Shown: positions 9,744 through 51,117 of the stretch, piece by piece | Numbering within the stretch: position 1 is the stretch's first letter | How the letters are laid out: every line of letters starts with the position of its first letter | Source of the DNA: Sphingobacteriales bacterium UTBCD1 | GTDB taxonomy: Bacteria > Bacteroidota > Bacteroidia > Chitinophagales > Chitinophagaceae | NCBI GenBank assembly: GCA_002066995.1 | Contig: MWTC01000031.1 | Coordinates: 11,649 to 75,648, forward strand | DNA length: 64,000 nt | Reading direction: 5' to 3' | Position numbers and translations under genes: made by a program | The notes under the pieces: model-generated | Told to the model about the DNA's origin: nothing | Seen by the model: the letters and a program-made list of their open reading frames with translations, nothing else | The model's database searches: none

Positions 9744-12700
9744 CTATTTCTGCACAAGTTTTTCATAGCCTTTCCAATCTTCCGGAAGTTCTTTTCCCAA
9801 ATATTGCTTACATCTTTTTGCAAAGATTGATGGCACCGTATCCATAACATCCGATTTGATGAGGCTATTAAAGACTGCCAAAGCAGAGGAGAAATCACGA
9901 TTGAAATAAGCCTCCATTCCTGCTGCCAGTTCTTTTTTCGTTGCTTCCTTGGCCCTGCGCCGGTCATCTTCTTCGGCATCCAGCACTTCATACAACCTGA
10001 TGGCCTTATCTTTTCCTTTGACCGCTACATAGTCAACCATCCGTATGGAAAAAGCGCCGGGATTTTCAAGAGAGGAAAAAGTATTCTCACCAACCAGGAA
10101 TTGTGCTTCATAAATCCTGGTCAACTGTTCTATCCTTGAAGCAAGGTTTACCGAATCTCCCAATACAGTACACTGCATTCTGTCTAACCCGCCCATAGTG
10201 CCGAGAACCATGGACCCGGTATTCATACCAAGACCCATTCTCAATGGTGGCCGGCTACCTGTGATATGGGTTGCATTAAATTTTCGCAACGCAGCACACA
10301 TCATGATACCTGCTTCCACCGACTGCTGAGCCGGCACCGGGAACAATGCCATGATCTCATCGCCGGCATAGGAATCTATAAAACCACCAAACCTTGTTAT
10401 CGGCTCTCCCAGCACACTGTAATATTCATTCAGCAATTCAATCACATCATGCGGAGACAGCTTTTCCACCATGGAGGTAAATTCACGAATATCCGAAAAC
10501 AGCACACTCATTTCCATGGCAACCGATTCACCCAGTTCCACCTTCGAAATATCATTATGCCCGAGATTTTTCAAAAACTGGATTGGCACAAAGCGTTGTT
10601 GTGCTTTTAGCAATTGCTCCTGGTTCTCATAAATTCTTGCATTGGCAAGAGAAATGGCTGCCTGGCCGGAGAGCAGTTTGATTATATTCACACGCTCTTC
10701 ACTAAAAGCGCTGTGTGTTACATTATTTTCCAGGTACACGGCTACTCTCCAATGATCGTGCAACGGAAGCGGAACACACATTACCGACAATGGTTTTGCC
10801 CTGATGATATAAGGATCAGAAGAAAAGGGATTTATTTTAGAAGCATTATCAATAACGATGGCTTCATTGGTGCGCCAGGCTGTGTTGATAAGTGTTACGG
10901 GAAAATGAGGCCCCGCATGAACCGGTGAAACAGTTTTTTCTTCCCGGTTACTTTCATCTCTTTGTGCAAGAATGGCAATCTTTCCATCCTGTTCCCCGAA
11001 AAGAAAACCTTTTTGTGCTCCGGCATTTTCCAACAGGATTTGTAAGGTGGATTTAAAAAGTTTTTCCAGTACCAGCTCACCGGAAATAGTTTGAGAGGCT
11101 TTGAAAATAGAATTGATATCGAGCAACTCTGCATTGATGCTGTCTGTAATCGTATGAACAGTTGATTCCTGGTTTTTTGACTGAACAGGAACATTGCCCC
11201 GGTAGGTTGCTGATCCGGAAAGAGACGGGTATTCTTTATCCATTATTTCCACTTTCCGGGAAGCGCCCCACCGGTAATATAAATACCGGGAAGCCTGTAA
11301 ATATCCTTCTGCCGCTTTGGGCAGGCCTGAACTCAATAATAATCTTGCTGCCATTTCATTGGCCATAGCCTCATCGCGGATAAAATTATTTTTTTGGGCA
11401 AGGGCAATTGATCGTTCAAAAAGTGACAAAGCCTCTGCAATGTTATTATGATGACATGCAAACATAGCTTCCATTAATAATTGAAGATGGCCGAAATTTT
11501 CCGGGCATTGTTTTGCCCATCTTGTCATTGTGGCAAGGCTTTGCTGCATTTTATCAAGCAACTTCTGCTGCTCTTCAAAGGCGCTATCCCTGAGCAAAAT
11601 TGCATACACCAAAAAAGAAATAATATGAAAACGTACCAACTGGGGCAATGACATAACGGATGACATCAACCGTTCCTGCTCGAGTATATGAGGCAATGCG
11701 CCCCATGCATCATTGTAGAGAAAGTGAATCTCTGCTTTGTAAATACGATAGTTGGCTATGCCTGTCATAAAATGACGGCGCACCATACCCTCAATGCATT
11801 CTTCCTCATTGAAGTTATCATCAGTCATTGAGCAGAGGCTCCTGGTCATTCCCAGGAAATTCAATTGCATTTGCAAAAACAATGTTCCGGAATCATAGGA
11901 GTCCTGGTAATCACATTCTTTCACGATCTTCAGCATCTTTCGGTGTTCATTAGCCGCAGTTTCCAGATCAAGCTGCGGATCCCAGATAATACAATCCTGT
12001 GCACTGTATGCCAGGTACAAAAGATCGCCTGACTGATAACCGGCTTCTATGCCTTTCCGAAACCAGGGAGTCATGGTTGACCAATGATTGGACCAGTGAT
12101 GCACAAACATCGTATAAACATAAATGACCCTTGACCGGAGAGCGATGTCATCATATTTTTCAACGAGGCTTACCCCCAGCTTGCCATATTCATATCCAAG
12201 AACCGTATCATTAAAATAACCGCAGAGAATCATTCCGTATGCTGCGTATGCAAAAGCAGTCTCAGGACTGTTGCCATACTGCAGGGCTAAATTCACCGAC
12301 TTCAAAACAAGATAGGGAAACATGGTACCGCTGGCAGATAGAAATGCCGCTGCAAATGTTTCCATCAATAACTGGCTGGCAATTTTTGCTTTTTGATCAG
12401 TAAGATTGGAAAGATTAATGAGATCAGCAATGGCCCGGCCATTTAACAACCTTGCCAGCAACTGCACTTCTTCCTCTACATTCAGGGAAGTTGGTTCCGG
12501 CAAAAATTCAAACCCCAGGAATGAAAGTCCTTCACAGGCAGCCTGGATGGATTCTCTCATTTTGCCGATAGTAGCATATTGCCTGGTCCGGGCAGATAAT
12601 ACCAATGCTTTTTCAATGGGTGTTTTTGCATTTTTCAACATTGCTTCTGCCCAATTGTCGGCGCCGTTCCAATCTCCGGTCAAATAAGTGCAATGCTGAA

Positions 12701-15158
12701 TTTCTTCATACAGTTTCCAGGTAAGATCATAATCGGATTGCCAGGCATCTTTTTCAAGAAGATCATATCCTGTCTTCAGATAATTCAATGCTGCTTCATA
12801 AGCCGAAGATTGTTTTGCTTTGATTCCTGCTTTTAAATTTAGCGTCACCAATTCATTGCGTTCTCCCGAGTTTTCAATCAAAGACCTTCCTTCATTCAGA
12901 TGGCCGGTTATTTCAAAAAGCGCATCATCCAGTTCTTCTTTGCTGGTATGATTCAGTATCAGCCGCCCTATGGAAAGATGGAGCGCCTGCCTTTTTTCCG
13001 GAGCAATCATTGAATAAGCAGCCTGCTGCACCCTGTCATGTTGAAACCGGTATGTAGGATTCAGTTCACTAATATCTTGTTCAGTGTTGTCCTGAAATGT
13101 TCCGCCTGGTTTGAATGAATCCAATCCCACCAACTTATAGTTCTCGCTGAGTGGAATAACAACATTTGCCCTAAGCGCTTCTTCCAATTCCTGCGCCGTC
13201 TCATCCATGGTACTTTCATGAATGATCGTTAATGTTTTAAGATCAAACGTGGCGCCAACGCAGGAAGCTAACTGAAGAACCTGTTGCGTGGCGCTTTTCA
13301 GACGGGAGAGACTGGCCACCAGGAAATCAACCACGTTGTCGCTGTTTTTCGTTTTTCTCACCTCGTCAATATCCCAATTCCATTTCCCTGCTTCAGGGTT
13401 AAACCTGATGACTCCCCTTTCATTCAGGTTCTTTAATAATTCAATAGTAAAAAAAGGATTGCCCGCTGCTTTTTCAAATAACACACCACTTAATGGTCTT
13501 GCATCATCCGGGTTACAATGCAATGCATCAGTGGCAATTTGATTTACGGCTTCAGCACTAAGGGGTTCGAGGTGCAAATTTTCAATAATCCGTTCTTTCT
13601 GAATTTCTCCAAGAATGAGATTCAACGGATGGGAATCGTCCACGGCATTGCTGCGATAAGCGCCGATGAGTAAAAAATGTCCCAATTCCTTTGAAGTAAC
13701 GAGATGGTGAATCAGGTTTAATGTAGGAATATCGCTCCACTGCAGGTCATCCATAAACAATACCAGCGGGTGTTCTTTACCGGCAAATACCTTTACAAAA
13801 TTCTGAAGCAGGATAAAGAAACGCTTTTGCGCTTCAGCGGGGGGAAGCTCCTGCACAGGAGGATACTTGCCGATAATCAATTCCAGTTCAGGTATCAGAT
13901 CAATCAGCAGGCGTGCATTATTTCCCAATGCATTGCCGATAGAGGTACGCCATTTTTCAAGAACGTTTTCCGGCTCACCAAGTAATTCATAAATAAGTTT
14001 GCGAAAAGCGTTGGCAAAAGCGAAGTAAGCATTGTTTTGTTTGAACTGCTCAAACTTTCCATGGGCCAGGTATCCTCTTTTTTTTACAATGAATCTGCCT
14101 AACTCATATACCAGCACCGATTTTCCGACACCTGAATAACCTGACACCAGGCAAAACTCTACCGAGCCGTTGGATGCATTATCAAGGTGTGACACTAAAC
14201 AATCAATTTCATCATTGCGGCCATACAATTTCTGGGGGATCTGAAAAACAGGAGAAATATCTGAGGTTGCCAATTCAAAATTAAAATCATGAAATCCCTT
14301 ACGAATCATTTCCCGGCATTCCTCAAGGTCTGCTGCAATACCGAAACTGCTTTGATAACGGTCTTCAGCATTTTTTGAAATGAGTTTTGCAACAATATCC
14401 GATAACATATCCGGGATCATCCGGTTCACTTTATTGACCGGTGTTGCCTGTCTGCTGATATGGCAATGAACCCATTCCAACGGATCACTTGCAGAAAAGG
14501 GAAGCCGGCCGGTAAGCATGCGGTAAAAGGTGATGCCGAGAGAATAATAATCCGTACGGTAATCCACATCACGATTCATGCGGCCTGTCTGCTCAGGCGA
14601 CATGAAAGGCAAGGAGCCTTCAATTCGTTTGGTCAATGAAATATCCTGTCGTTCCCTGGATAGTTCGGTTGAAGAGCTGAAATCAATCAGCCGCAGCGTA
14701 CCGGTACCCGGTTCAATAAGAATATTGGCGGGGTTGATGTCTTTATGGATAACATTTTTTTCATGCAGGCTCCCTAAAATTTTCACAAGTGATACGGCAA
14801 TTGAAAAAAACTGTTTCAGCGGGAGGTGTTTGTTTTCATATCCGGTAAGATATTCCTGTAAGGTAATACCAAATTTCTCCATTACAATTCCCCAATTGCC
14901 CTGTCCAAACGGTACAAATGAGTGCACGTTTATGATTCCCTCAAATTGAAGCTGACGGAGTATCTGGTATTCACGCCTGATATTGGCAATCTCCTCCCTC
15001 GCAGGAAAAGAGGCATTCAGGGTTTTGATGGCTGCTTCGGTATTATCTTCTTTCCTGGTTGCCCGGTAAACAACATGCAGGTTTGACTCCGATATCTTTT
15101 CAATGATCAGGTATCCGGGAATAATTTCCGCATTTTCATTTTCGTGGTAAATGTCCAC
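9744..15158 (-). CDS. Multidomain signalling protein: Ser/Thr kinase - AAA/STAND ATPase - TPR - GAF - class III adenylate/guanylate cyclase
   Basis: Kinase motifs AIKTL, HKDINPANIL, IDFSSS and SPEQ. Walker A GYSGVGKS at about aa 340. A long helical/TPR region and a GAF-like segment around aa 1340-1500. Cyclase motifs VLFSDIREFTS, YAGDEIMALF and GDSVNLASRIE. GTG start 3 nt after the upstream stop. Confidence 0.9.
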   Translation of the reverse strand: MDIYHENENAEIIPGYLIIEKISESNLHVVYRATRKEDNTEAAIKTLNASFPAREEIANIRREYQILRQLQFEGIINVHSFVPFGQGNWGIVMEKFGITLQEYLTGYENKHLPLKQFFSIAVSLVKILGSLHEKNVIHKDINPANILIEPGTGTLRLIDFSSSTELSRERQDISLTKRIEGSLPFMSPEQTGRMNRDVDYRTDYYSLGITFYRMLTGRLPFSASDPLEWVHCHISRQATPVNKVNRMIPDMLSDIVAKLISKNAEDRYQSSFGIAADLEECREMIRKGFHDFNFELATSDISPVFQIPQKLYGRNDEIDCLVSHLDNASNGSVEFCLVSGYSGVGKSVLVYELGRFIVKKRGYLAHGKFEQFKQNNAYFAFANAFRKLIYELLGEPENVLEKWRTSIGNALGNNARLLIDLIPELELIIGKYPPVQELPPAEAQKRFFILLQNFVKVFAGKEHPLVLFMDDLQWSDIPTLNLIHHLVTSKELGHFLLIGAYRSNAVDDSHPLNLILGEIQKERIIENLHLEPLSAEAVNQIATDALHCNPDDARPLSGVLFEKAAGNPFFTIELLKNLNERGVIRFNPEAGKWNWDIDEVRKTKNSDNVVDFLVASLSRLKSATQQVLQLASCVGATFDLKTLTIIHESTMDETAQELEEALRANVVIPLSENYKLVGLDSFKPGGTFQDNTEQDISELNPTYRFQHDRVQQAAYSMIAPEKRQALHLSIGRLILNHTSKEELDDALFEITGHLNEGRSLIENSGERNELVTLNLKAGIKAKQSSAYEAALNYLKTGYDLLEKDAWQSDYDLTWKLYEEIQHCTYLTGDWNGADNWAEAMLKNAKTPIEKALVLSARTRQYATIGKMRESIQAACEGLSFLGFEFLPEPTSLNVEEEVQLLARLLNGRAIADLINLSNLTDQKAKIASQLLMETFAAAFLSASGTMFPYLVLKSVNLALQYGNSPETAFAYAAYGMILCGYFNDTVLGYEYGKLGVSLVEKYDDIALRSRVIYVYTMFVHHWSNHWSTMTPWFRKGIEAGYQSGDLLYLAYSAQDCIIWDPQLDLETAANEHRKMLKIVKECDYQDSYDSGTLFLQMQLNFLGMTRSLCSMTDDNFNEEECIEGMVRRHFMTGIANYRIYKAEIHFLYNDAWGALPHILEQERLMSSVMSLPQLVRFHIISFLVYAILLRDSAFEEQQKLLDKMQQSLATMTRWAKQCPENFGHLQLLMEAMFACHHNNIAEALSLFERSIALAQKNNFIRDEAMANEMAARLLLSSGLPKAAEGYLQASRYLYYRWGASRKVEIMDKEYPSLSGSATYRGNVPVQSKNQESTVHTITDSINAELLDINSIFKASQTISGELVLEKLFKSTLQILLENAGAQKGFLFGEQDGKIAILAQRDESNREEKTVSPVHAGPHFPVTLINTAWRTNEAIVIDNASKINPFSSDPYIIRAKPLSVMCVPLPLHDHWRVAVYLENNVTHSAFSEERVNIIKLLSGQAAISLANARIYENQEQLLKAQQRFVPIQFLKNLGHNDISKVELGESVAMEMSVLFSDIREFTSMVEKLSPHDVIELLNEYYSVLGEPITRFGGFIDSYAGDEIMALFPVPAQQSVEAGIMMCAALRKFNATHITGSRPPLRMGLGMNTGSMVLGTMGGLDRMQCTVLGDSVNLASRIEQLTRIYEAQFLVGENTFSSLENPGAFSIRMVDYVAVKGKDKAIRLYEVLDAEEDDRRRAKEATKKELAAGMEAYFNRDFSSALAVFNSLIKSDVMDTVPSIFAKRCKQYLGKELPEDWKGYEKLVQK

Positions 15159-23755: not shown

Positions 23756-24646
23756 ATGAAAAAGATACTATATATATTGTCGGTGGCCGCTTTGGTAATC
23801 GTCATTCATTCATGTAAGAAAAAAGAGAGCTTAAATGTTTTCTCTGATTACAAAAATTTAGGCCTTGGAACTTACATGACGCTTGACAAAAACATTAATT
23901 TGAATCTGGATTTCTCTCACCTGGCAACATCTACTGTTGGAATACAGGTGAGCCAGTATCCCAATGGCCAGGCTATAGATCATATCATTCTATTTGCTAC
24001 CACAAATGCCTCTTATGATACTACTCAATGGCATTTTGTGAAATCAATTCCTTACACAGGCCCGGGTACCCAGTTAACTGTGAGCGGTGCAGAATTGGCC
24101 ACATCACTTGGAGTGAGCATCGGGACGTTGCAGCCCGGTACTGCATATACTTTTTATACCCGCATCATTACAAAACAAGGATATAGCTTTGATGTAAATA
24201 CTACCGGTGATAACGGGGGGGGTGGTTTGGTGACCGGAGCATACTACAACTCTGTATTTTCATTCACAGCTTATATTGTTTGTCCCTTTACCGGGAATAT
24301 GGTGGGTACTTATAAAGTAATAAGGGATGATTGGGCTGACTGGTCACCTGGTGATATGGTACAGGTAACTGACGGGCCCGGTGCCAACCAGATCAATTTA
24401 AGCCAGGTATATCCAGGAGGTGGTATTATCATTAATCCTTTAATTGTAAATATTGATCCTGCCAGCGGTACTGCAAAAATTCCAAAGACCGTATTTGGGA
24501 AATATTCCGCTAATGGCCACCAATATACTGCAGAAGGAGCAGGAGATAGTGACGTAGCAGGTTTTGTATTTTCCTGTACAGGCTATATCACTTTAAACAT
24601 TAATATTGATGGAGATCCATACAAATTGATCTTGCAAAAACAGTGA
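23756..24646 (+). CDS. PUL-associated lipoprotein of unknown function
   Basis: Lipobox (VIHSC), 296 aa, 14 nt after susD and followed by a terminator. I recognise no catalytic motif. Confidence 0.65.
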   Translation: MKKILYILSVAALVIVIHSCKKKESLNVFSDYKNLGLGTYMTLDKNINLNLDFSHLATSTVGIQVSQYPNGQAIDHIILFATTNASYDTTQWHFVKSIPYTGPGTQLTVSGAELATSLGVSIGTLQPGTAYTFYTRIITKQGYSFDVNTTGDNGGGGLVTGAYYNSVFSFTAYIVCPFTGNMVGTYKVIRDDWADWSPGDMVQVTDGPGANQINLSQVYPGGGIIINPLIVNIDPASGTAKIPKTVFGKYSANGHQYTAEGAGDSDVAGFVFSCTGYITLNINIDGDPYKLILQKQ

Positions 24647-46735: not shown

Positions 46736-47765
46736 ATGAGAAAAATTACCCCCCCCGACATTTTTTTCCAAATCACTTGCTTGCCTCTTAGTAATCTTTT
46801 CTGTTTTGCTCAGTTTTAATTCCTGTAAAAAGGAAGAAAAGAAATCTGATGTCGCAATGCAGGAAGAATCTGTCAATAAAGTTCATCCTAATGTTCCTCA
46901 GTGTAGTAACGGCTATCACTGGGACTATAACTTAATGCAGTGTGTACCCAATTGCCCATCCGGTTATATTTATGATCCTGAAACAAATGATTGTATTCCC
47001 AATGAACCAAGCGGTGGATCCAGAATTTGTGGTGCAGAATTTAACCAATTTAATTTAGGTGGTTATACATTAAGCCAGGTGATCGAATATATAGGCGTGA
47101 AACACAACGAATATCAGGATTTCATTTATAATGGCATTATGGCTGATACATCAGTCCTTACTAACGGAACATTACAGGCTTTCCTAAAACAAAAAACGAC
47201 AACTTTTTTTAAAGGGCTGGGCATAACTGAAGCTAATAATCCATTACCCGGAAACTTTGATATATTAGATACAAGCTTTGTAATCACCGGTTATTCTTCA
47301 AGTGCAACAACTATTCTTAATCAATTAAAAGGGATTGCAGATGGATATACTGATGAAAATTATTTCCAGATAATTAACACGCTGGAAAACCTGAAGCAGC
47401 AGGCCCTCAATTTACCTGATTTTACAGAAGCTTTAGCAGTAGCAGGTTGCATAAGTGTTGCTAAACATTCTTATCAGTATTGGACTTACAATCTTACAAA
47501 ATGGTATGCTGTATTACATTTAAGTGGTAGCGGTTATGCAAATAAACAAGCTCCATGTGGTATTAATGTAAAAAAGATTGGAGGGAAAGATGTTATTGGA
47601 GCAATTAATGGGGCTACATTAGGATCTTTTGGAGGAGTTGTAGGTGCATTTGCCGGAGGAATTCTTGGCAGCGCTACTGCTTCGGCAGGACAGGTTTTGT
47701 GGGAAGCCGCAAAATGTATACCCTATGTAGGGAATGTAGTAAGATGGTTATCCGATTGGTTTTAA
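46736..47765 (+). CDS. Putative surface lipoprotein toxin with a C-terminal glycine-zipper module (5' end frameshifted in a C8/T7 tract)
   Basis: The ATG at 46736 opens MRKITPP..., which stops at 46817-46819. The main frame (ORF-track 46806-47765) read backwards encodes ...PPTFFSKSLACLLVIFSVLLSFNSC, a complete lipoprotein signal, if one nt is removed from C8 (46749-46756) or T7 (46761-46767). Mature N-terminus is CKKEEKK. C-terminus is GAINGATLGSFGGVVGAFAGGILGSATASAGQVLWEAAKCIPYVGNVVRWLSDWF. Confidence 0.7.
46749..46767 (+). repeat. C8 and T7 homopolymer tracts at the frameshift point of the toxin gene
   Basis: Counted directly: C at 46749-46756 and T at 46761-46767. Confidence 0.9.
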
Positions 47766-47795
47766 TCTATGTTGAGATATTTAAAATAGCCATGT

Positions 47796-48029
47796 ATGAA
47801 CTTTTTTTCGCACATACGGAATAAGATAAGAGAATCCAAAAAATTTACTATTATATTTATTGTTATATACAGCGTTATATTTTTTTTACTCTTAAGACTA
47901 TTTATTCCGGTATATGCTCACTCTTCAGATTTAATATTATTAATAATCACCAATCTTGTTGTAGTCTTTTATATTCGAAAAAAATTTTTAATTAAAAAAA
48001 AGGAGAAGGATCATCAACAATTGAAATAA
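47796..48029 (+). CDS. Small two-helix membrane protein, putative immunity protein (type A, copy 1)
   Basis: 77 aa: basic N-terminus MNFFSHIRNKIRESKK, two hydrophobic helices and a Lys-rich tail ending DHQQLK. Starts 30 nt after the toxin stop. Confidence 0.6.
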   Translation: MNFFSHIRNKIRESKKFTIIFIVIYSVIFFLLLRLFIPVYAHSSDLILLIITNLVVVFYIRKKFLIKKKEKDHQQLK

Positions 48030-48260
48030 AAAGACCCGGCCAGTCGGTTGATAAACGTTTAACAAAAAGGTTATGGAGGTGCTGATATTAAAGGCGCATT
48101 TGTCGGTGGTAGAATAGGTTTAGCTGCAGGGGCTCCGGGTGTATTTGCGGGAGCAATTTTGAGTAGTGCAGTTTTTTCTTCAGGGCGGGTATTATGGGAA
48201 GCCGCTAAATGCATACCTTATGTAGGAGGAATAATTAGATGGTTAGATGATTGGTTTTAG
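48030..48260 (+). other. Orphan toxin C-terminal cassette 1 (frame intact from 48063, no start codon)
   Basis: 48063-48260 translates to QKGYGGADIKGAFVGGRIGLAAGAPGVFAGAILSSAVFSSGRVLWEAAKCIPYVGGIIRWLDDWF*, collinear with the last 64 aa of the full-length gene. A TAA at 48060-48062 replaces a Lys codon (INV*QK vs INVKK). Confidence 0.75.
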
Positions 48261-48291
48261 TTTATTTCATGATTTTATTAATTTATTTGAT

Positions 48292-48522
48292 ATGAACTTT
48301 TTTTCGCACTTACGGAAGAAGATAAGGGAATCCAAAAAATTTACTATTATATTTGGTATCATATACAGCGTTATATTTTTTTTACTCTTTAGACTATTTT
48401 TTCCGGAATATGCTCACTTTTCGGATTTAATATTATTAATAATTACCGGGTTTGTCGGTGACTTTTATATCCGAAAGAAATTTTTAAATAAAAAAAAGAA
48501 TGATCATCAACAATTGAAATAA
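48292..48522 (+). CDS. Putative immunity protein (type A, copy 2)
   Basis: 76-aa paralogue of 47796-48029. I use the internal ATG at 48292, because the ORF-track start at 48247 lies inside the cassette tail. Confidence 0.6.
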   Translation: MNFFSHLRKKIRESKKFTIIFGIIYSVIFFLLFRLFFPEYAHFSDLILLIITGFVGDFYIRKKFLNKKKNDHQQLK

Positions 48523-48752
48523 AAAGACCCGGCCAGTCGGTTGATAAACGTTTAACAAAAAGGTTATGGAGGATCTGATATTAAAGGCGCAATTGCCGGT
48601 GGTAGAATAGGTTTAGCTGCAGGGGCTCCGGGTGTATTTGCGGGAACAATTTTGGTTAGTGCAGTTTTTTTTCAGGGCGGGTATTATGGAAAGCTGCAAA
48701 ATGTATTCCTTATGCAGGATCTGTGATCAGATGGTTAAGTGATTGGTTTTAA
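48523..48752 (+). other. Orphan toxin C-terminal cassette 2 (frameshifted)
   Basis: Near-identical to cassette 1 at the 5' end. There is a 1-nt deletion at the T8 run (48665-48672), which puts the VLWKAAKCIPYAGSVIRWLSDWF* tail out of frame. Confidence 0.7.
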
Positions 48753-48778
48753 TACAGAGAAATTATAATAAAATTCTT

Positions 48779-48994
48779 ATGAAATTTTTATCCAGGTTAA
48801 GAAATAAAATTTGGGAATCTGCTCCACTATTCTACATCTTTGGTTTGATAAACAGTGTTATTGTTTTTTTCCTTCTTAGGCAATTTCTTCCTGAATGGAC
48901 AGACTTTTCCGTTTTAATCATTGTCATTATTTCCGGTATAATTGGTGACTATTATATAAGAAAATGGTACATTAAAAAAAATAAAAAGGAGTAA
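48779..48994 (+). CDS. Putative immunity protein (type B, copy 1)
   Basis: 71 aa starting MKFLSRLRNKIWESAPLFY, with the same two-helix architecture. Internal ATG at 48779 used. Confidence 0.55.
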   Translation: MKFLSRLRNKIWESAPLFYIFGLINSVIVFFLLRQFLPEWTDFSVLIIVIISGIIGDYYIRKWYIKKNKKE

Positions 48995-49029
48995 TCATTG
49001 GAGCTGCACTTATGACATGGCTTATTCAT

Positions 49030-49109
49030 CAGGAGCAGTATTATGGGAAGCCGCAAAATTTATACCATACGTAGGGAATGTAGTAAGATGGTTATCTGAT
49101 TGGTTTTAA
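49030..49109 (+). other. Orphan cassette 3: tail-only remnant
   Basis: Encodes ...SSGAVLWEAAKFIPYVGNVVRWLSDWF*. It and its 3' flank match 47690-47795, offset 1345 bp. Confidence 0.7.
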
Positions 49110-49140
49110 TCTATGTCGAGATATTGAAAAATGACCTTAA

Positions 49141-49371
49141 ATGAATTTTTTTTCATACATAAATAATAGGATAATAAAATCCAAGAGATTTGCGATAATT
49201 TATAGTATTATTGTAAGTGTTATTACATTTTTTCTCGGCGCACTATTTATCCCTGATCTTAGGGATATTCCCGACCTGATAATAAGTATTCTTACCGGGC
49301 TTGTCGCCCACTTATATATTAGAAAATTTTTAACTGAAAAAAAGGAGAAGGATCATCAACAATTGAAATAA
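49141..49371 (+). CDS. Putative immunity protein (type A', divergent)
   Basis: 76 aa starting MNFFSYINNRIIKSKRF, two helices, tail EKDHQQLK. Confidence 0.55.
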   Translation: MNFFSYINNRIIKSKRFAIIYSIIVSVITFFLGALFIPDLRDIPDLIISILTGLVAHLYIRKFLTEKKEKDHQQLK

Positions 49372-49601
49372 AAAGACCCGGCCAGTCGGTTGATAAACGT
49401 TTAACAAAAAGGTTATGAAGGAGCTGATATTAAAGGCGCAATTGCCGGTGGTAGAATAGGTTTAGCTGCAGGGGCTACAGGTGTATTTGCGGGAACAATT
49501 TTGGTTAGTGCAGTTTTTTTTCAGGGCGGGTATTATGGAAAGCTGCAAAATGTATTCCTTATGCAGGGAATGTAGTAAGATGGTTATCCGATTGGTTTTA
49601 A
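49372..49601 (+). other. Orphan toxin C-terminal cassette 4 (frameshifted)
   Basis: Same 5' junction (AAAGACCCGGCCAGTCGGTTGATAAACGTTTAACAAAAAGGTTATG) and the same 1-nt deletion as cassette 2. Tail is ...AGNVVRWLSDWF*. Confidence 0.7.
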
Positions 49602-49631
49602 TTTAGAGTCAATTATTTAAAAATACCTTAA

Positions 49632-49865
49632 ATGAAGTTTTTTTCCGCTTTACGGAATAAGATAAGAAAATCCAAAAGGTTTACTATTTTATTTAGTGTT
49701 ATATACAGCGTTATATTTTTTTTACTCTTAAGACTATTTATTCCGGAATACGCTCACTCATCAGATTTAATATTATTAATAATCACCGGGATAGTCGTTG
49801 ACTTATATATTCGAAAAAAAATTTTAATTAAAAAAAAGAAGAATGATCATCAACAATTGAAATAA
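49632..49865 (+). CDS. Putative immunity protein (type A, copy 3)
   Basis: 77 aa starting MKFFSALRNKIRKSKRF, a paralogue of copies 1 and 2. Confidence 0.6.
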   Translation: MKFFSALRNKIRKSKRFTILFSVIYSVIFFLLLRLFIPEYAHSSDLILLIITGIVVDLYIRKKILIKKKKNDHQQLK

Positions 49866-50095
49866 AAAGACCCGGCCGGTCGGTTGATAAACGTTTAACA
49901 AAAAGGTTATGGAGGAGCTGATATTAAAGGCGCAATTGCCGGTGGTAGAATAGGTTTAGCTGCAGGGGCTACAGGTGTATTTGCGGGAACAATTTTGGTT
50001 AGTGCAGTTTTTATTCAGGGAGGGCATTATGGGAAGCTGCAAAATGTATTCCTTACGTAGGGTCTGTGATCAGATGGTTAAGTGATTGGTTTTAA
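49866..50095 (+). other. Orphan toxin C-terminal cassette 5 (frameshifted)
   Basis: Same junction sequence. It is 1 nt shorter than cassette 1 in GCAGTTTTTATTCAGGGAGGGCATTATGGGAA. Tail is ...VGSVIRWLSDWF*. Confidence 0.7.
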
Positions 50096-50121
50096 TACAG
50101 AGAAATTACAATAAAATTCTT

Positions 50122-50352
50122 ATGAAATTTTTATCCAGGTTAAGAAATAAAATTTGGGAATCTGCTCCACTATTCTACATCGTGGGTTTGATAAACACTG
50201 TTATTGGTTTTTTTCTCCTTACTCTATTCATTCCTGAAATGAGAAATTCTGGCTATCTCATACTATTTATAATCTGTGGATTAATCACTGACTATCTCTT
50301 AAGAAAGATGTACTATAAAAAAAAGAAGAATGATCATCAAGAATTGAAATAA
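50122..50352 (+). CDS. Putative immunity protein (type B, copy 2)
   Basis: 76 aa starting MKFLSRLRNKIWESAPLFY, with the first ~20 aa identical to the 48779 copy. Internal ATG at 50122 used. Confidence 0.55.
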   Translation: MKFLSRLRNKIWESAPLFYIVGLINTVIGFFLLTLFIPEMRNSGYLILFIICGLITDYLLRKMYYKKKKNDHQELK

Positions 50353-50751: not shown

Positions 50752-51117
50752 TCATTCTTCGCCTTTCAAAGTATTATAAAAAGCAAGGATCATTTTATAA
50801 ATCTGCAAGGCCTCATCAATCAAAGATTCATAAATCTCTTTTGTCAGATAGTTAACTCTAAAAGCAAGCTCAATCTGAGTTTGTGCTTCATTTATCGAAC
50901 CCATTGAGATTTCAAGAAATCTTTTAAACTGTTTATTGGTACCTCTCCCTGCTCCTTCAGAAATATTACTTGGTACAGAGACCGCACAACTCCGAAGTTG
51001 AGCAGTAAGTCCATATTTTTCTTCCTTTGGAAAATTTGCGCTTACTTCATAAATCTTAACCACATAATCCATGGAACGCTGCCAGATCTTTAACTCCCTG
51101 TAATTATGCATGCCCAT
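50752..51117 (-). CDS. Four-helix-bundle protein (23S rRNA intervening-sequence protein family)
   Basis: 121 aa with the family pattern Y.EL.IWQ....V..IY.....FP.EE.YGLT.Q.RS.AVSVPSNI.EG.GR....F..FL.I..GS..E..TQ. Confidence 0.85.
   Translation of the reverse strand: MGMHNYRELKIWQRSMDYVVKIYEVSANFPKEEKYGLTAQLRSCAVSVPSNISEGAGRGTNKQFKRFLEISMGSINEAQTQIELAFRVNYLTKEIYESLIDEALQIYKMILAFYNTLKGEE

Follow-up and report, generated by a model that had tools for sequence, protein, structure and literature searches.

A large gene, start-less fragments and small membrane-protein genes upstream of atpC

The window, that is, the whole 64,000-nucleotide stretch of DNA that we analysed, contains a ~494-bp tandem array in which a single large gene is accompanied by five 3' cassettes without a start codon and by six intact two-transmembrane (two-TM) ORFs of 71-77 aa, all read from the forward strand. 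As the first-pass annotation had described, the block is AT-rich, with a GC content of 0.32-0.36 compared to 0.38-0.47 in its housekeeping flanks. In line with its statement that no T6SS, T9SS-CTD, T1SS, CdiB or Rhs/YD element is nearby, no secretion system was detected among the large ORFs scanned in the window, where the context is housekeeping.

The large gene (46736..47765) encodes a protein with a lipoprotein signal, followed by a Cys-rich module, a helical domain and a glycine-zipper hairpin and ending in an aromatic tail, and carries a frameshift at a C8 homopolymer (46749..46756) within the signal-peptide codons. As assembled, its ORF spans 46806-47765 and is out of frame with the ATG at 46736; only C7 or C10 would place the gene in frame, giving MRKITPPTFFSKSLACLLVIFSVLLSFNSC followed directly by KKEEKK. 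C8 breaks the signal peptide, and the protein encoded by the gene as assembled cannot be exported. This corrects the lipoprotein ORF of the first-pass annotation. The orthologous tract in the relative L003 is C9 (OFF), and the same protein from another sample (P0178) has an intact N-terminus equivalent to C10, so that the poly-C tract looks phase-variable and is a candidate slipped-strand ON/OFF switch. All four members of the large protein's cluster are gene calls truncated at the N-terminus, indicating that no assembly seen of the source organism has the main gene in frame. Together with a frameshift in the distant homologue P0004, this suggests that the locus is possibly decaying. Judged from its sequence, the main gene is in either a phase-OFF or a pseudogene state.

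Domain structure of the large protein

The lipobox cysteine codon (46824..46826, after LSFNS) is followed by KKEEKK. With CKKEEKK, the mature protein starts with a match to K-(D/E)2, a published export signal of Bacteroidota lipoproteins (PMC5080379), which fits the surface-export signal proposed earlier, although the strict motif occurs in only 5 of the 70 lipobox-bearing family members. Next come a Cys-rich N-terminal module (46902..47030; CSNGYHWDYNLMQCVPNCPSGYIYDPETNDCIP...RIC), for which the model shows two small beta-hairpins, and an all-helical domain (47031..47555) with the family motifs KHNxYQ and SxxYW..N. The carrier region had been reported as unrecognised, and we likewise obtained no Pfam match for the window protein and no fold match in the PDB for this domain or for the large protein; in the Foldseek search colicin S4 appeared only at rank 44 (E=6), which we counted as no fold match. 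The C-terminal part (47556..47765, stop codon included) is a Cys-bracketed glycine-zipper helix-turn-helix with the tail VLWEAAKCIPYVGNVVRWLSDWF, and the ORF terminates in GAINGATLGSFGGVVGAFAGGILGSATASAGQVLWEAAKCIPYVGNVVRWLSDWF, confirming the zipper module annotated at its end. An AF2 model built with 60 sequences (pLDDT 85.7) predicted a helical bundle plus the zipper hairpin, the latter with a pLDDT of ~92-95.

Most cassettes are decayed, whereas the small ORFs are intact

Five same-orientation copies of the C-terminal repeat follow the large gene, as annotated, and none contains an ATG (cassette 1 has an internal TTG only); three are frameshifted, however, and one is a stub. Cassette 1 (48030..48260) is the only intact one of the five, a start-less continuous frame (QKGYGGADIKG...RWLDDWF) with zipper allele B. 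Cassettes 2 (48523..48752), 4 (49372..49601) and 5 (49866..50095) have all lost the same single nucleotide between zipper and VLWEAAKC tail, a deletion inherited in common. Cassette 3 (49030..49109) is a tail-only stub (VLWEAAKFIPYVGNVVRWLSDWF) with 88% nucleotide identity to the main-gene tail; it was recognised as repeat D3 and by translation, and the other four were detected by the family HMM (E 7e-13 to 3e-7). All four zipper-bearing cassettes carry the same second zipper allele, with 93-98% mutual identity and 52% identity to the expressed gene. Outside the tail, in the part that precedes it, the cassettes match that gene at only ~52% of nucleotides.

The six small ORFs, I1 (47796..48029, 77 aa), I2 (48292..48522, 76 aa if begun at the 48292 ATG, although the ORF listing extends to 48247), I3 (48779..48994, 71 aa), I4 (49141..49371, 76 aa), I5 (49632..49865, 77 aa) and I6 (50122..50352, 76 aa, the last unit before atpC), are all intact, and every one has basic ends and a pair of hydrophobic segments. 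Three types can be distinguished, as had been noted approximately from the first reading: type 1 (I1/I2/I5, 79-81% identity), type 2 (I3/I6, 66%) and type 3 (I4 alone). Their dN/dS values of 0.09-0.50 indicate that they are real genes under purifying selection. I1 is the candidate cognate immunity gene of the large gene. In the locus L008 the cassette contains two in-frame stops and both small ORFs are intact; here as there, decay has affected the toxin-end fragments but not the small ORFs that alternate with them. The small ORFs linked to the four same-allele cassettes differ among themselves, which is a poor fit to one-to-one cognate pairs. The Bacteroidota -7 promoter motif was absent before every small ORF of the array, so separate expression of the candidate immunity genes is hypothetical.

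The gene pair is conserved and the locus varies between strains

A small two-TM ORF lies downstream of the large gene at L001, L004/L005, L013, L014, L016 and L017, with L014 holding two tandem pairs. All seven other loci with 3' sequence have such a tiny ORF directly after the gene (57-77 aa overall), and they include single-copy loci that lack cassettes. Larger membrane proteins take its place at two further loci, and the downstream protein at L011 is 135 aa long with two C-terminal TM segments. The pairing of large gene and small ORF proposed in the earlier annotation thus extends beyond this array, and on sequence comparison the pair is conserved down to ~25-30% identity.

Strain-to-strain variation had been suggested as a check on this atpC-adjacent locus, and the array does differ between related strains. 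In L006 and L007 the final unit ahead of atpC, a cassette tail plus ORF, resembles I5 and not I6, and matches the I5 unit at 97.6% identity. L003 carries at this DUF4197/atpC site a different effector region together with an ABC ATPase and a multi-TM protein; behind the common lipobox and Cys-rich N-terminus, the entire effector region and the accessory genes have been replaced. The best NCBIfam match of the L003 ATPase is 'lantibiotic protection ABC', at a score below the curated cut-off. The array is a mosaic generated by recombination.

The large protein belongs to a diverse family

Searches with the large protein defined a family of 712 cluster representatives at E<=1e-3 (159 at E<=1e-10), for which there is no Pfam or NCBIfam model. 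Its architecture is conserved right to the C-terminus, and the helical domain, zipper and aromatic tail constitute one conserved family. A carrier with an exchangeable C-terminal toxin, the arrangement put forward by the first-pass annotation, was therefore rejected: the zipper is the conserved end of the 712-representative family and not a grafted warhead. The modular part is instead the N-terminal lipobox plus Cys-rich module, which is joined to several unrelated C-terminal regions; the Cys-rich module is optional within the family. A lipobox was present in 70 of 120 full-length members, and 44 of the 120 had another, non-lipoprotein signal-like N-terminus. The Cys pair bracketing the zipper hairpin covaries perfectly (both present in 33 members, neither in 42, 0 discordant; Fisher p=5e-22). 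Nine of ten sampled 90%-identity clusters contained just one or two sequences, consistent with high family diversity. The family is previously undescribed and appears to be restricted to Bacteroidota, the phylum of its wider membership being judged only from signal-peptide style and a few named MAGs.

Proposed function and alternative explanations

We favour, as the somewhat probable reading, a toxin of bacteriocin type that is exported by Sec, permeabilises membranes and is countered by an immunity protein in the inner membrane; the array would add orphan immunity genes and toxin fragments in decay. In CdzC/D (PMC5380434), TelE (PMC10434224) and EsxX (PMC12744356) the glycine-zipper end is a proven warhead that depolarises membranes, and immunity comes from membrane or zipper-binding proteins; toxicity of the large protein and immunity by the small ORFs are here purely what we infer. 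Once the protein has been exported and its disulfides have formed, its helical domain would keep the hydrophobic hairpin soluble until it arrives at the periplasmic face of the target's cytoplasmic membrane, where it would insert and self-associate via its GxxxG faces, and the inserted hairpins would collapse the membrane potential by forming a leak or pore. The producer would need immunity because the toxin crosses its own periplasm; the small protein, with both ends cytoplasmic, could bind the hairpin inside the bilayer of the producer's inner membrane and stop oligomerisation. Additional small ORFs may be orphan immunity genes against toxin variants of relatives. The unit of large-gene 3' end and small ORF has been tandemly multiplied and reshuffled via recombination. 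The cassette fragments would be what is left of toxin ends that were displaced, and as donors for recombination they would be of marginal use at most. The poly-C tract could turn toxin export ON or OFF with the immunity genes still transcribable. Surface display, outer-membrane vesicles or release are candidate modes of delivery, and no delivery machinery or receptor was identified. A point against a toxin is that a ~30-kDa protein must pass the target's outer membrane, and no route accounts for this passage. The out-of-frame main gene, the poor fit of the cassettes to one-to-one pairs and the absent promoter motif also weigh against this reading.

The pair could instead serve the cell envelope, with a structural or stress-related zipper protein of the SlyB/Pcp/17-kDa-antigen style in the outer membrane or periplasm, a two-TM partner or assembly factor, and an array that is a neutral, decaying duplication. 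The combination of lipobox and glycine zipper is typical of that class, strict gene pairing suits a two-protein complex equally well, and no delivery system is nearby. The Pfam families Gly-zipper_Omp and Gly-zipper_YMGG are weakly matched, but each by a single member of 60 and neither by the window protein. A housekeeping pair should also stay in place, yet the L003 effector is replaced and array content is strain-dependent; six small ORFs selectively retained beside decaying partner fragments are hard to account for. The extreme diversity of the family, most sampled clusters of which hold one or two sequences, and the OFF states that the gene tolerates also count against it. We regard this explanation as unlikely.

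Still less probable, in our assessment, is a surface lipoprotein that undergoes phase and antigenic variation, with a poly-C switch, cassettes that act as gene-conversion donors as in pilE/pilS or vlsE, and small ORFs as passengers. This would explain a homopolymer in signal-peptide codons whose length differs between samples, start-less cassettes with tail homology to the expressed gene (88% for cassette 3) and the export-signal motif on the mature N-terminus (PMC5080379). The varying part, however, is a hydrophobic Gly/Ala hairpin, an improbable exposed epitope; with four cassettes of one zipper allele, three of them frameshifted, the donor repertoire is essentially nil; and the supposed passengers evolve under purifying selection and recur as conserved partners at cassette-free single-copy loci. 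A self-directed system, in which the zipper protein permeabilises the producer's membrane under control of the small protein for vesicle or lysis release, abortive infection or programmed death and not against competitors, seems very improbable. Tight pairing with a membrane protein and phase-variable expression would suit it, as would PADLOC similarities between two small ORFs and models of the 2TM effector type (E 0.003-0.02), but these matches are weak, at noise level and composition-driven, phage and defence genes were absent from the flanks of every locus examined, and diversified small-ORF arrays with strain-specific effector swaps are a signature of inter-strain conflict and not of self-lysis.

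Comparison with known systems

SlyB, Pcp and the Rickettsia 17-kDa antigen resemble the large protein in being lipoproteins with a glycine-zipper two-helix hairpin, but they are conserved, single-copy proteins of ~150 aa with neither a paired two-TM ORF nor a cassette array. Glycine-zipper lipoproteins may be structural, as in the SlyB/Pcp class, which is a consideration against the toxin reading. Pore-forming colicins are soluble helical bundles whose hydrophobic hairpin inserts in the target cytoplasmic membrane, and their immunity proteins are small integral-membrane proteins. The proposed array toxin is like them in concept and not in fold; it has Sec export and lacks recognisable translocation or receptor domains, and neither a lysis gene nor a plasmid location was found for the array. 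In CDI (cdiA-CT/cdiI) and Rhs loci, as here, a full gene plus immunity gene precedes start-less 3' fragments, each with a small ORF, and in the prototype, EC93, the CdiA-CT acts as an ionophore in the membrane and CdiI is a small membrane protein. Unlike those loci, the array has no CdiB, FHA repeats, VENN/PxxxxDPxGL demarcation or YD repeats, and its fragments all encode one kind of domain instead of unrelated toxins.

Myxococcus SitA proteins are lipobox toxins with a downstream immunity gene and polymorphic effectors behind a common N-terminal delivery part (PMC5562445, PMC8546572), an arrangement like the one proposed here. They differ in that most SitA effectors are nucleases that act in the cytoplasm and are delivered through TraAB membrane fusion, known only in myxobacteria; there is no sequence relationship, and ~37% of the array's family are not lipoproteins. 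Caulobacter CdzC/CdzD-CdzI is similar to the proposed system in its surface-associated glycine-zipper proteins, which kill by contact, and in its inner-membrane immunity protein (PMC5380434, PMC10434224), but Cdz proteins are small, aggregate-forming and exported by dedicated type I secretion, whereas the proteins here are 270-340 aa with a Sec/lipoprotein signal and a large helical domain, and no T1SS genes lie near the array. Compared to the Firmicutes T7SS LXG/TspA-type toxins (TelE, EsxX, TspA with tandem TsaI), the array has no LXG/WXG domain and no T7SS, resides in a diderm host with export by Sec signal or lipobox, contains a helical domain without known relatives, and has a 57-77 aa two-TM immunity candidate instead of DUF5085 or polytopic ExiCD. 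These T7SS toxins nevertheless share with the proposed toxin-immunity array a C-terminal glycine-zipper membrane-damaging warhead, immunity via membrane or zipper-binding proteins, N-terminally truncated orphan toxin modules and recombination-shaped strings of non-identical immunity paralogues (PMC10434224, PMC12744356, PMC9484751).

A large protein family ending in a conserved glycine zipper

The large protein (46736-47765, plus strand) is recognised by neither Pfam nor NCBIfam, and Pfam, NCBIfam and PADLOC searches of the large protein, a cassette peptide and the small ORFs that follow it gave nothing above noise. Word-indexed protein searches returned few relatives (5, 8 and 10 overall; five for the large protein among 5.8 billion proteins), so the size of the family became visible only by exhaustive HMM search. 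That profile search, over 1.84 billion cluster representatives, recovered 712 members at E<=1e-3, of which 159 remained at E<=1e-10. One locus each came from scanning GTDB genomes and JGI metagenomes, tblastn of plasmids gave no match, and no account of this family was found in the literature searched.

Aligned members (270-340 aa) share one architecture. It begins with a Sec signal peptide or a lipobox (lipobox in 70 and another signal-like N-terminus in 44 of 120 full-length members), sometimes continues with a Cys-rich module, and proceeds to a helical domain with motifs including KHNDYQ and SxxYW..N. The C-terminal region reads C-x-(I/V)-N-L-x-K-(L/I)-GGADVxGAIxGA, followed by a Gly/Ala zipper and an aromatic end, either C.PxVGxVxRWxSDWF or C...SWW(PF). 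The zipper is therefore the family's own C-terminus and not a foreign warhead on a carrier, as the first-pass annotation had supposed. The two cysteines that bracket the zipper covary perfectly (both in 33 members, neither in 42, discordant in 0; Fisher p=5e-22), a pattern that points to a disulfide staple and, with it, to an oxidising compartment outside the cytoplasm.

An AF2 model built with 60 sequences reached pLDDT 85.7, while only four sequences gave a poor model (pLDDT 57). At the N-terminus the Cys-rich module forms two small beta-hairpins and leads into a helical bundle; a helix-turn-helix over the zipper, modelled with confidence, and a short tail helix complete the chain. Foldseek of this model against the PDB found no relative (best E 0.52) and no colicin pore domain, colicin S4 appearing only at rank 44 (E=6). 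A PDB sequence profile search matched only a prion glycine-zipper segment at noise level (E ~0.05), which we attribute to composition. Glycine-zipper lipoproteins are assigned to Pfam families by scores above the gathering threshold; the window protein matched neither Gly-zipper_Omp (PF13488) nor Gly-zipper_YMGG (PF13441) even at E<=1; each was matched by one of 60 relatives (E 7e-4 to 9e-3), as was Bacteriocin_IIc (PF10439; E 1.9e-4). The initial impression that both the carrier and the putative immunity family are unrecognised held in Pfam and NCBIfam for both and, for the large protein, in Foldseek against the PDB, where no match was meaningful.

A decaying cassette array beside six constrained small ORFs

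Repeat analysis of the window resolved a tandem array with a period of ~494 bp. Its first unit comprises the 3' end of the 319-codon ORF 46806-47765 and a 77-aa ORF; each of the five units that follow carries the last ~65 codons of the large ORF, start-less, and then a complete ORF of 71-77 aa. The six small ORFs, I1 (47796-48029), I2 (48292-48522), I3 (48779-48994), I4 (49141-49371), I5 (49632-49865) and I6 (50122-50352), all combine a basic N-terminus with two hydrophobic segments and end in a Lys-rich tail. They are annotated as B6D37_07760-07780 in Sphingobacteriales bacterium UTBCD1, and a Chitinophagaceae MAG annotation includes an identical large protein. The sorting into about three types made from the sequence alone was borne out (I1/I2/I5, I3/I6 and I4), and pairwise dN/dS values of 0.09-0.50 identify the small ORFs as protein-coding genes under constraint. 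Equally sound was the description of the block as AT-rich (GC 0.32-0.36 in the array vs 0.38-0.47 outside). Pfam gave the small ORFs no match below E=0.04, their alignment lacks a WxW motif, and TAnnTTTG, the Bacteroidota -7 promoter motif, was found upstream of none of the six.

The five start-less cassettes first described are present and follow the same unit plan, but only cassette 1 is a continuous frame. Cassette 3 is a stub containing the tail only, and cassettes 2, 4 and 5 are frameshifted by a common 1-nt deletion, located after the zipper and before the VLWEAAKC tail, a single event that was duplicated afterwards. Programmed frameshifting between zipper and tail was rejected because these three cassettes inherit one deletion and because an insertion shifts the distant homologue P0004 the opposite way. 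Read-through was rejected too, as two in-frame TAA codons stand between a small ORF and the cassette after it. The zipper segments of units 1, 2, 4 and 5 are 93-98% identical to one another and 52% identical to that of the expressed gene. These near-identical segments are joined to three types of tail, spacer and small ORF, which makes the array a recombination mosaic. Since the four zipper-bearing cassettes hold one allele beside differing small ORFs, simple cognate pairing fails.

A poly-C tract in the signal peptide and a putative surface-export signal

The ATG at 46736, the first position of the interval originally described, is out of frame with ORF 46806-47765: a C8 run at 46749-46756, within signal-peptide codons, breaks the frame, and only C7 or C10 restores MRKITPPTFFSKSLACLLVIFSVLLSFNSC followed by KKEEKK. 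At the related locus L003 the orthologous tract (~607-615) is C9 and likewise out of frame, and at L004 and L005 the tract is interrupted (GCCCCTCCACCA) and the gene is in frame. P0178, from another sample, matches P0005 of L003 as one and the same protein and starts MRKLSPPPTFF..., exactly the in-frame product expected of C10; the remaining members of its cluster are gene calls with truncated N-termini. The length of the tract thus varies from sample to sample. In the cluster of the window protein, 4/4 members are truncated calls, meaning OFF. Such behaviour is that of a slipped-strand phase switch, and the tract is a candidate for one, although a homopolymer assembly error could also account for its length. 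Only two C or G runs of >=8 occur in the 64 kb. The other one, G8 at 24215-24222, falls within a 296-aa ORF without annotation (23756-24646), situated just downstream of a SusC/SusD pair. Slipped-strand switches seem to be uncommon in Bacteroidota, where phase variation is better known from invertible promoters.

Once the poly-C tract is repaired, the protein reads ...LSFNSC-KKEEKK, placing KEE at +3 to +5. Bacteroidota surface lipoproteins that depend on a LES carry K-(D/E)2 or Q-A-(D/E)2 close to +2 after the lipobox Cys (PMC5080379). CKKEEKK fits K-(D/E)2 and suggests display of the window protein on the surface, as initially proposed, or on vesicles (PMC6222051); however, the strict motif occurs in only 5/70 lipobox-bearing relatives.

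Effector replacement and strain variation at the DUF4197/atpC site

Whether this atpC-adjacent locus varies between strains was a check first proposed from the sequence, and in relatives the DUF4197/atpC site does differ. L006 and L007, whose flanks are 91-92.5% identical to the window, close with a unit resembling I5 (97.6% identical) in the place of the window's I6. L008, with flanks 83-84% identical, has two intact small ORFs and between them a cassette with two in-frame stops. L003 is 83% identical in nucleotide sequence through the upstream gene, signal peptide and Cys-rich module, and beyond that module its C-terminal region, also Cys-rich, is unrelated; genes for an ABC ATPase and a multi-TM protein come next, after which the locus rejoins atpC. 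For the ATPase, the top NCBIfam match, 'lantibiotic protection ABC', scores under the curated cut-off. The L003 segment at 640-2983 encodes an alternative effector (P0005/P0178) with a hydrophobic C-terminal region and a multi-TM protein of 250 aa; it may represent a second toxin/protection type at this site. L004 and L005 encode a large protein 72% identical to that of the window with its own small ORF, and their contigs break within the array.

The CxxGYHWDxxLxKCVxxCPxGYHNDxxTGxCV module with its lipobox also occurs on C-terminal regions of at least five other kinds, all of them unrelated and without annotation (P0087, P0088, P0089, P0095, P0119, P0126, P0143). This recurrence places the modularity at the N-terminal junction, and the lipobox and Cys-rich module look like a shared display or delivery module.

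Between atpC and atpD, the window encodes a four-helix-bundle protein (50752-51117, minus strand; TIGR02436, 23S rRNA intervening-sequence protein / Avd-like); the gene is kept in L006 and L007, and L008 has no such gene there. Elsewhere in the window, 9744-15158 (minus strand) encodes an 1804-aa protein combining Ser/Thr kinase, AAA_16, GAF and adenylate/guanylate cyclase domains.

Partner genes at other loci

Wherever the sequence extends downstream, a membrane-protein gene follows the family gene on the same strand; at L001, L004/L005, L013, L014, L016 and L017 it is a tiny ORF with two hydrophobic segments. L014 has two tandem pairs of family gene and small ORF, and L001 encodes a protein 49% identical in a different genomic context, beside mutL. 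An HMM from the window small-ORF subfamily found no match among the partners of distant members; the small proteins diverge faster than the large ones. Two loci have other partners. In L011 the product of the downstream gene is 135 aa long and has two TM segments at its C-terminus. In L002 (1017-2060), a 1-nt insertion in P0004 shifts the WAALTCQPGVVGRVSSWIADWF tail to another frame, and behind this frameshifted large gene lies a DUF8250 membrane protein, not a tiny two-TM ORF.

Further along L011, downstream of the family protein P0160, 7322-10716 encodes a 59-aa peptide whose ...SAIKGG motif resembles a double glycine, together with an S41 peptidase and a two-component pair (His_kinase/LytTR), a bacteriocin-style neighbourhood; an unannotated 182-aa ORF separates it from the family gene. 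A GerE/LuxR-type response regulator is encoded directly upstream on the opposite strand at L013 (187-849) and L015 (47-1515), with a HisKA_3 kinase as well at L015. Regulator association of distant family loci may be conserved.

Proposed function

On balance, we consider the locus probably a bacteriocin-like toxin/immunity system. This reading rests on the export signal, the Cys-bracketed zipper hairpin, the neighbouring two-TM ORF and the intact paralogues beside decaying fragments, together with strain-specific content, effector replacement at one site and the variable poly-C tract. In such a system the helical domain would solubilise the hairpin, which would insert into the cytoplasmic membrane of the target from its periplasmic face, oligomerise through its GxxxG faces and so dissipate the membrane potential. 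The small protein would block the hairpin within the producer's own membrane, which the toxin must pass, and the extra small ORFs would be orphan immunity genes. Several points weigh against this reading: toxicity is a prediction, how the protein would cross the outer membrane of a target is not apparent, every assembly seen has the main gene OFF, the one zipper allele of the cassettes sits beside differing small ORFs, and the small ORFs lack a -7 motif that would speak for promoters of their own.

The large and small proteins could instead form a structural pair of the envelope, of the SlyB type, but replacement of the effector and tolerance of OFF states make this unlikely. Silent cassettes could also serve a phase- and antigenically variable lipoprotein; here the cassettes are hydrophobic and their diversity is near null, and we regard this explanation as distinctly improbable. 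Least probable of all would be a self-directed permeabiliser, for which the only pointers are noise-level PADLOC matches.

More tentatively than the toxin/immunity reading itself, the locus could represent the first case of an antibacterial class specific to Bacteroidota and launched by the Sec/lipoprotein pathway. A lipobox/Cys-rich N-terminal module would display or deliver interchangeable effectors, perhaps on the surface or on outer-membrane vesicles, without a dedicated secretion system. One effector type would be a new helical domain plus a disulfide-stapled glycine-zipper pore-former, neutralised by a new family of ~70-aa two-TM immunity proteins, with its production switched by the poly-C tract.

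Interbacterial weapons of environmental Bacteroidota beyond gut Bacteroidales are, to our knowledge, poorly mapped, and those described mostly rely on T6SS, MACPF proteins or small peptides. The present family is large (712 cluster representatives) and unannotated, with neither a Pfam model nor a structural relative, and its neighbourhoods follow the logic of a membrane-targeting toxin with an immunity protein, yet the system would need only the Sec/lipoprotein pathway. If this is true, the family would provide a new pore-former scaffold with a new, minimal immunity protein of the membrane, a candidate module for surface or vesicle delivery common to several effector types, a toxin of Bacteroidota controlled by phase variation of a homopolymer, and annotation for hundreds of 'hypothetical' metagenome gene pairs.

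Comparison with known systems

CDI requires a gene for the CdiB transporter together with a CdiA that bears a TPS domain and FHA repeats; no Pfam or NCBIfam match to such features was found in the large protein, and its neighbours are housekeeping genes. In CDI/Rhs orphan arrays, start-less CT/immunity modules share a conserved pre-toxin junction with the full-length gene. The first-pass annotation drew a likeness to these arrays. Start-less modules with their own small ORFs are present here; upstream of the tail, identity to the main gene is only ~52% at the nucleotide level, and no VENN or PxxxxDPxGL junction occurs. A YD-repeat shell, the mark of Rhs toxins, was not found when the large protein and 60 relatives were scanned with Pfam.

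Class II bacteriocins are small peptides with a double-glycine leader, a C39-ABC exporter and a GxxxG-rich mature peptide, whereas the proteins described here are 270-340 aa long and have a Sec/lipoprotein signal, with no C39 or ABC exporter beside the window locus. The Cdz system consists of two small glycine-zipper proteins, an adjacent type I secretion system and the membrane immunity protein CdzI; set against that description, our locus differs in having one large Sec-signal protein and no T1SS genes. The pore-forming colicin domain is a ten-helix bundle with a buried hydrophobic hairpin, and Foldseek gave the model of the large protein no fold match to it. Polymorphic toxin systems, more generally, combine a conserved N-terminal trafficking part with alternative C-terminal effectors, each with one or more downstream protective genes, and at the architectural level the locus shares this plan (the L003 swap; the module on at least five other C-terminal types).

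Imm17-type immunity proteins have two TM helices, a WxW and a conserved Arg between them (PMC3482391, Zhang et al. 2012); the window small ORFs differ in lacking both WxW and a Pfam match. CdzC/D (PMC5380434), TelE (PMC10434224) and EsxX (PMC12744356) are precedents for glycine-zipper warheads whose immunity proteins are membrane proteins or bind the zipper; tandem immunity arrays that recombine (PMC9484751) and lipoprotein polymorphic toxins (PMC5562445) have likewise been described. By analogy, the functionally closest systems would be the T7SS and Cdz glycine-zipper toxins, the pore-forming colicins and the CDI/Rhs orphan arrays, beside which the protein family, the family of immunity candidates, the Sec/lipoprotein launch and the homopolymer switch appear to be new.
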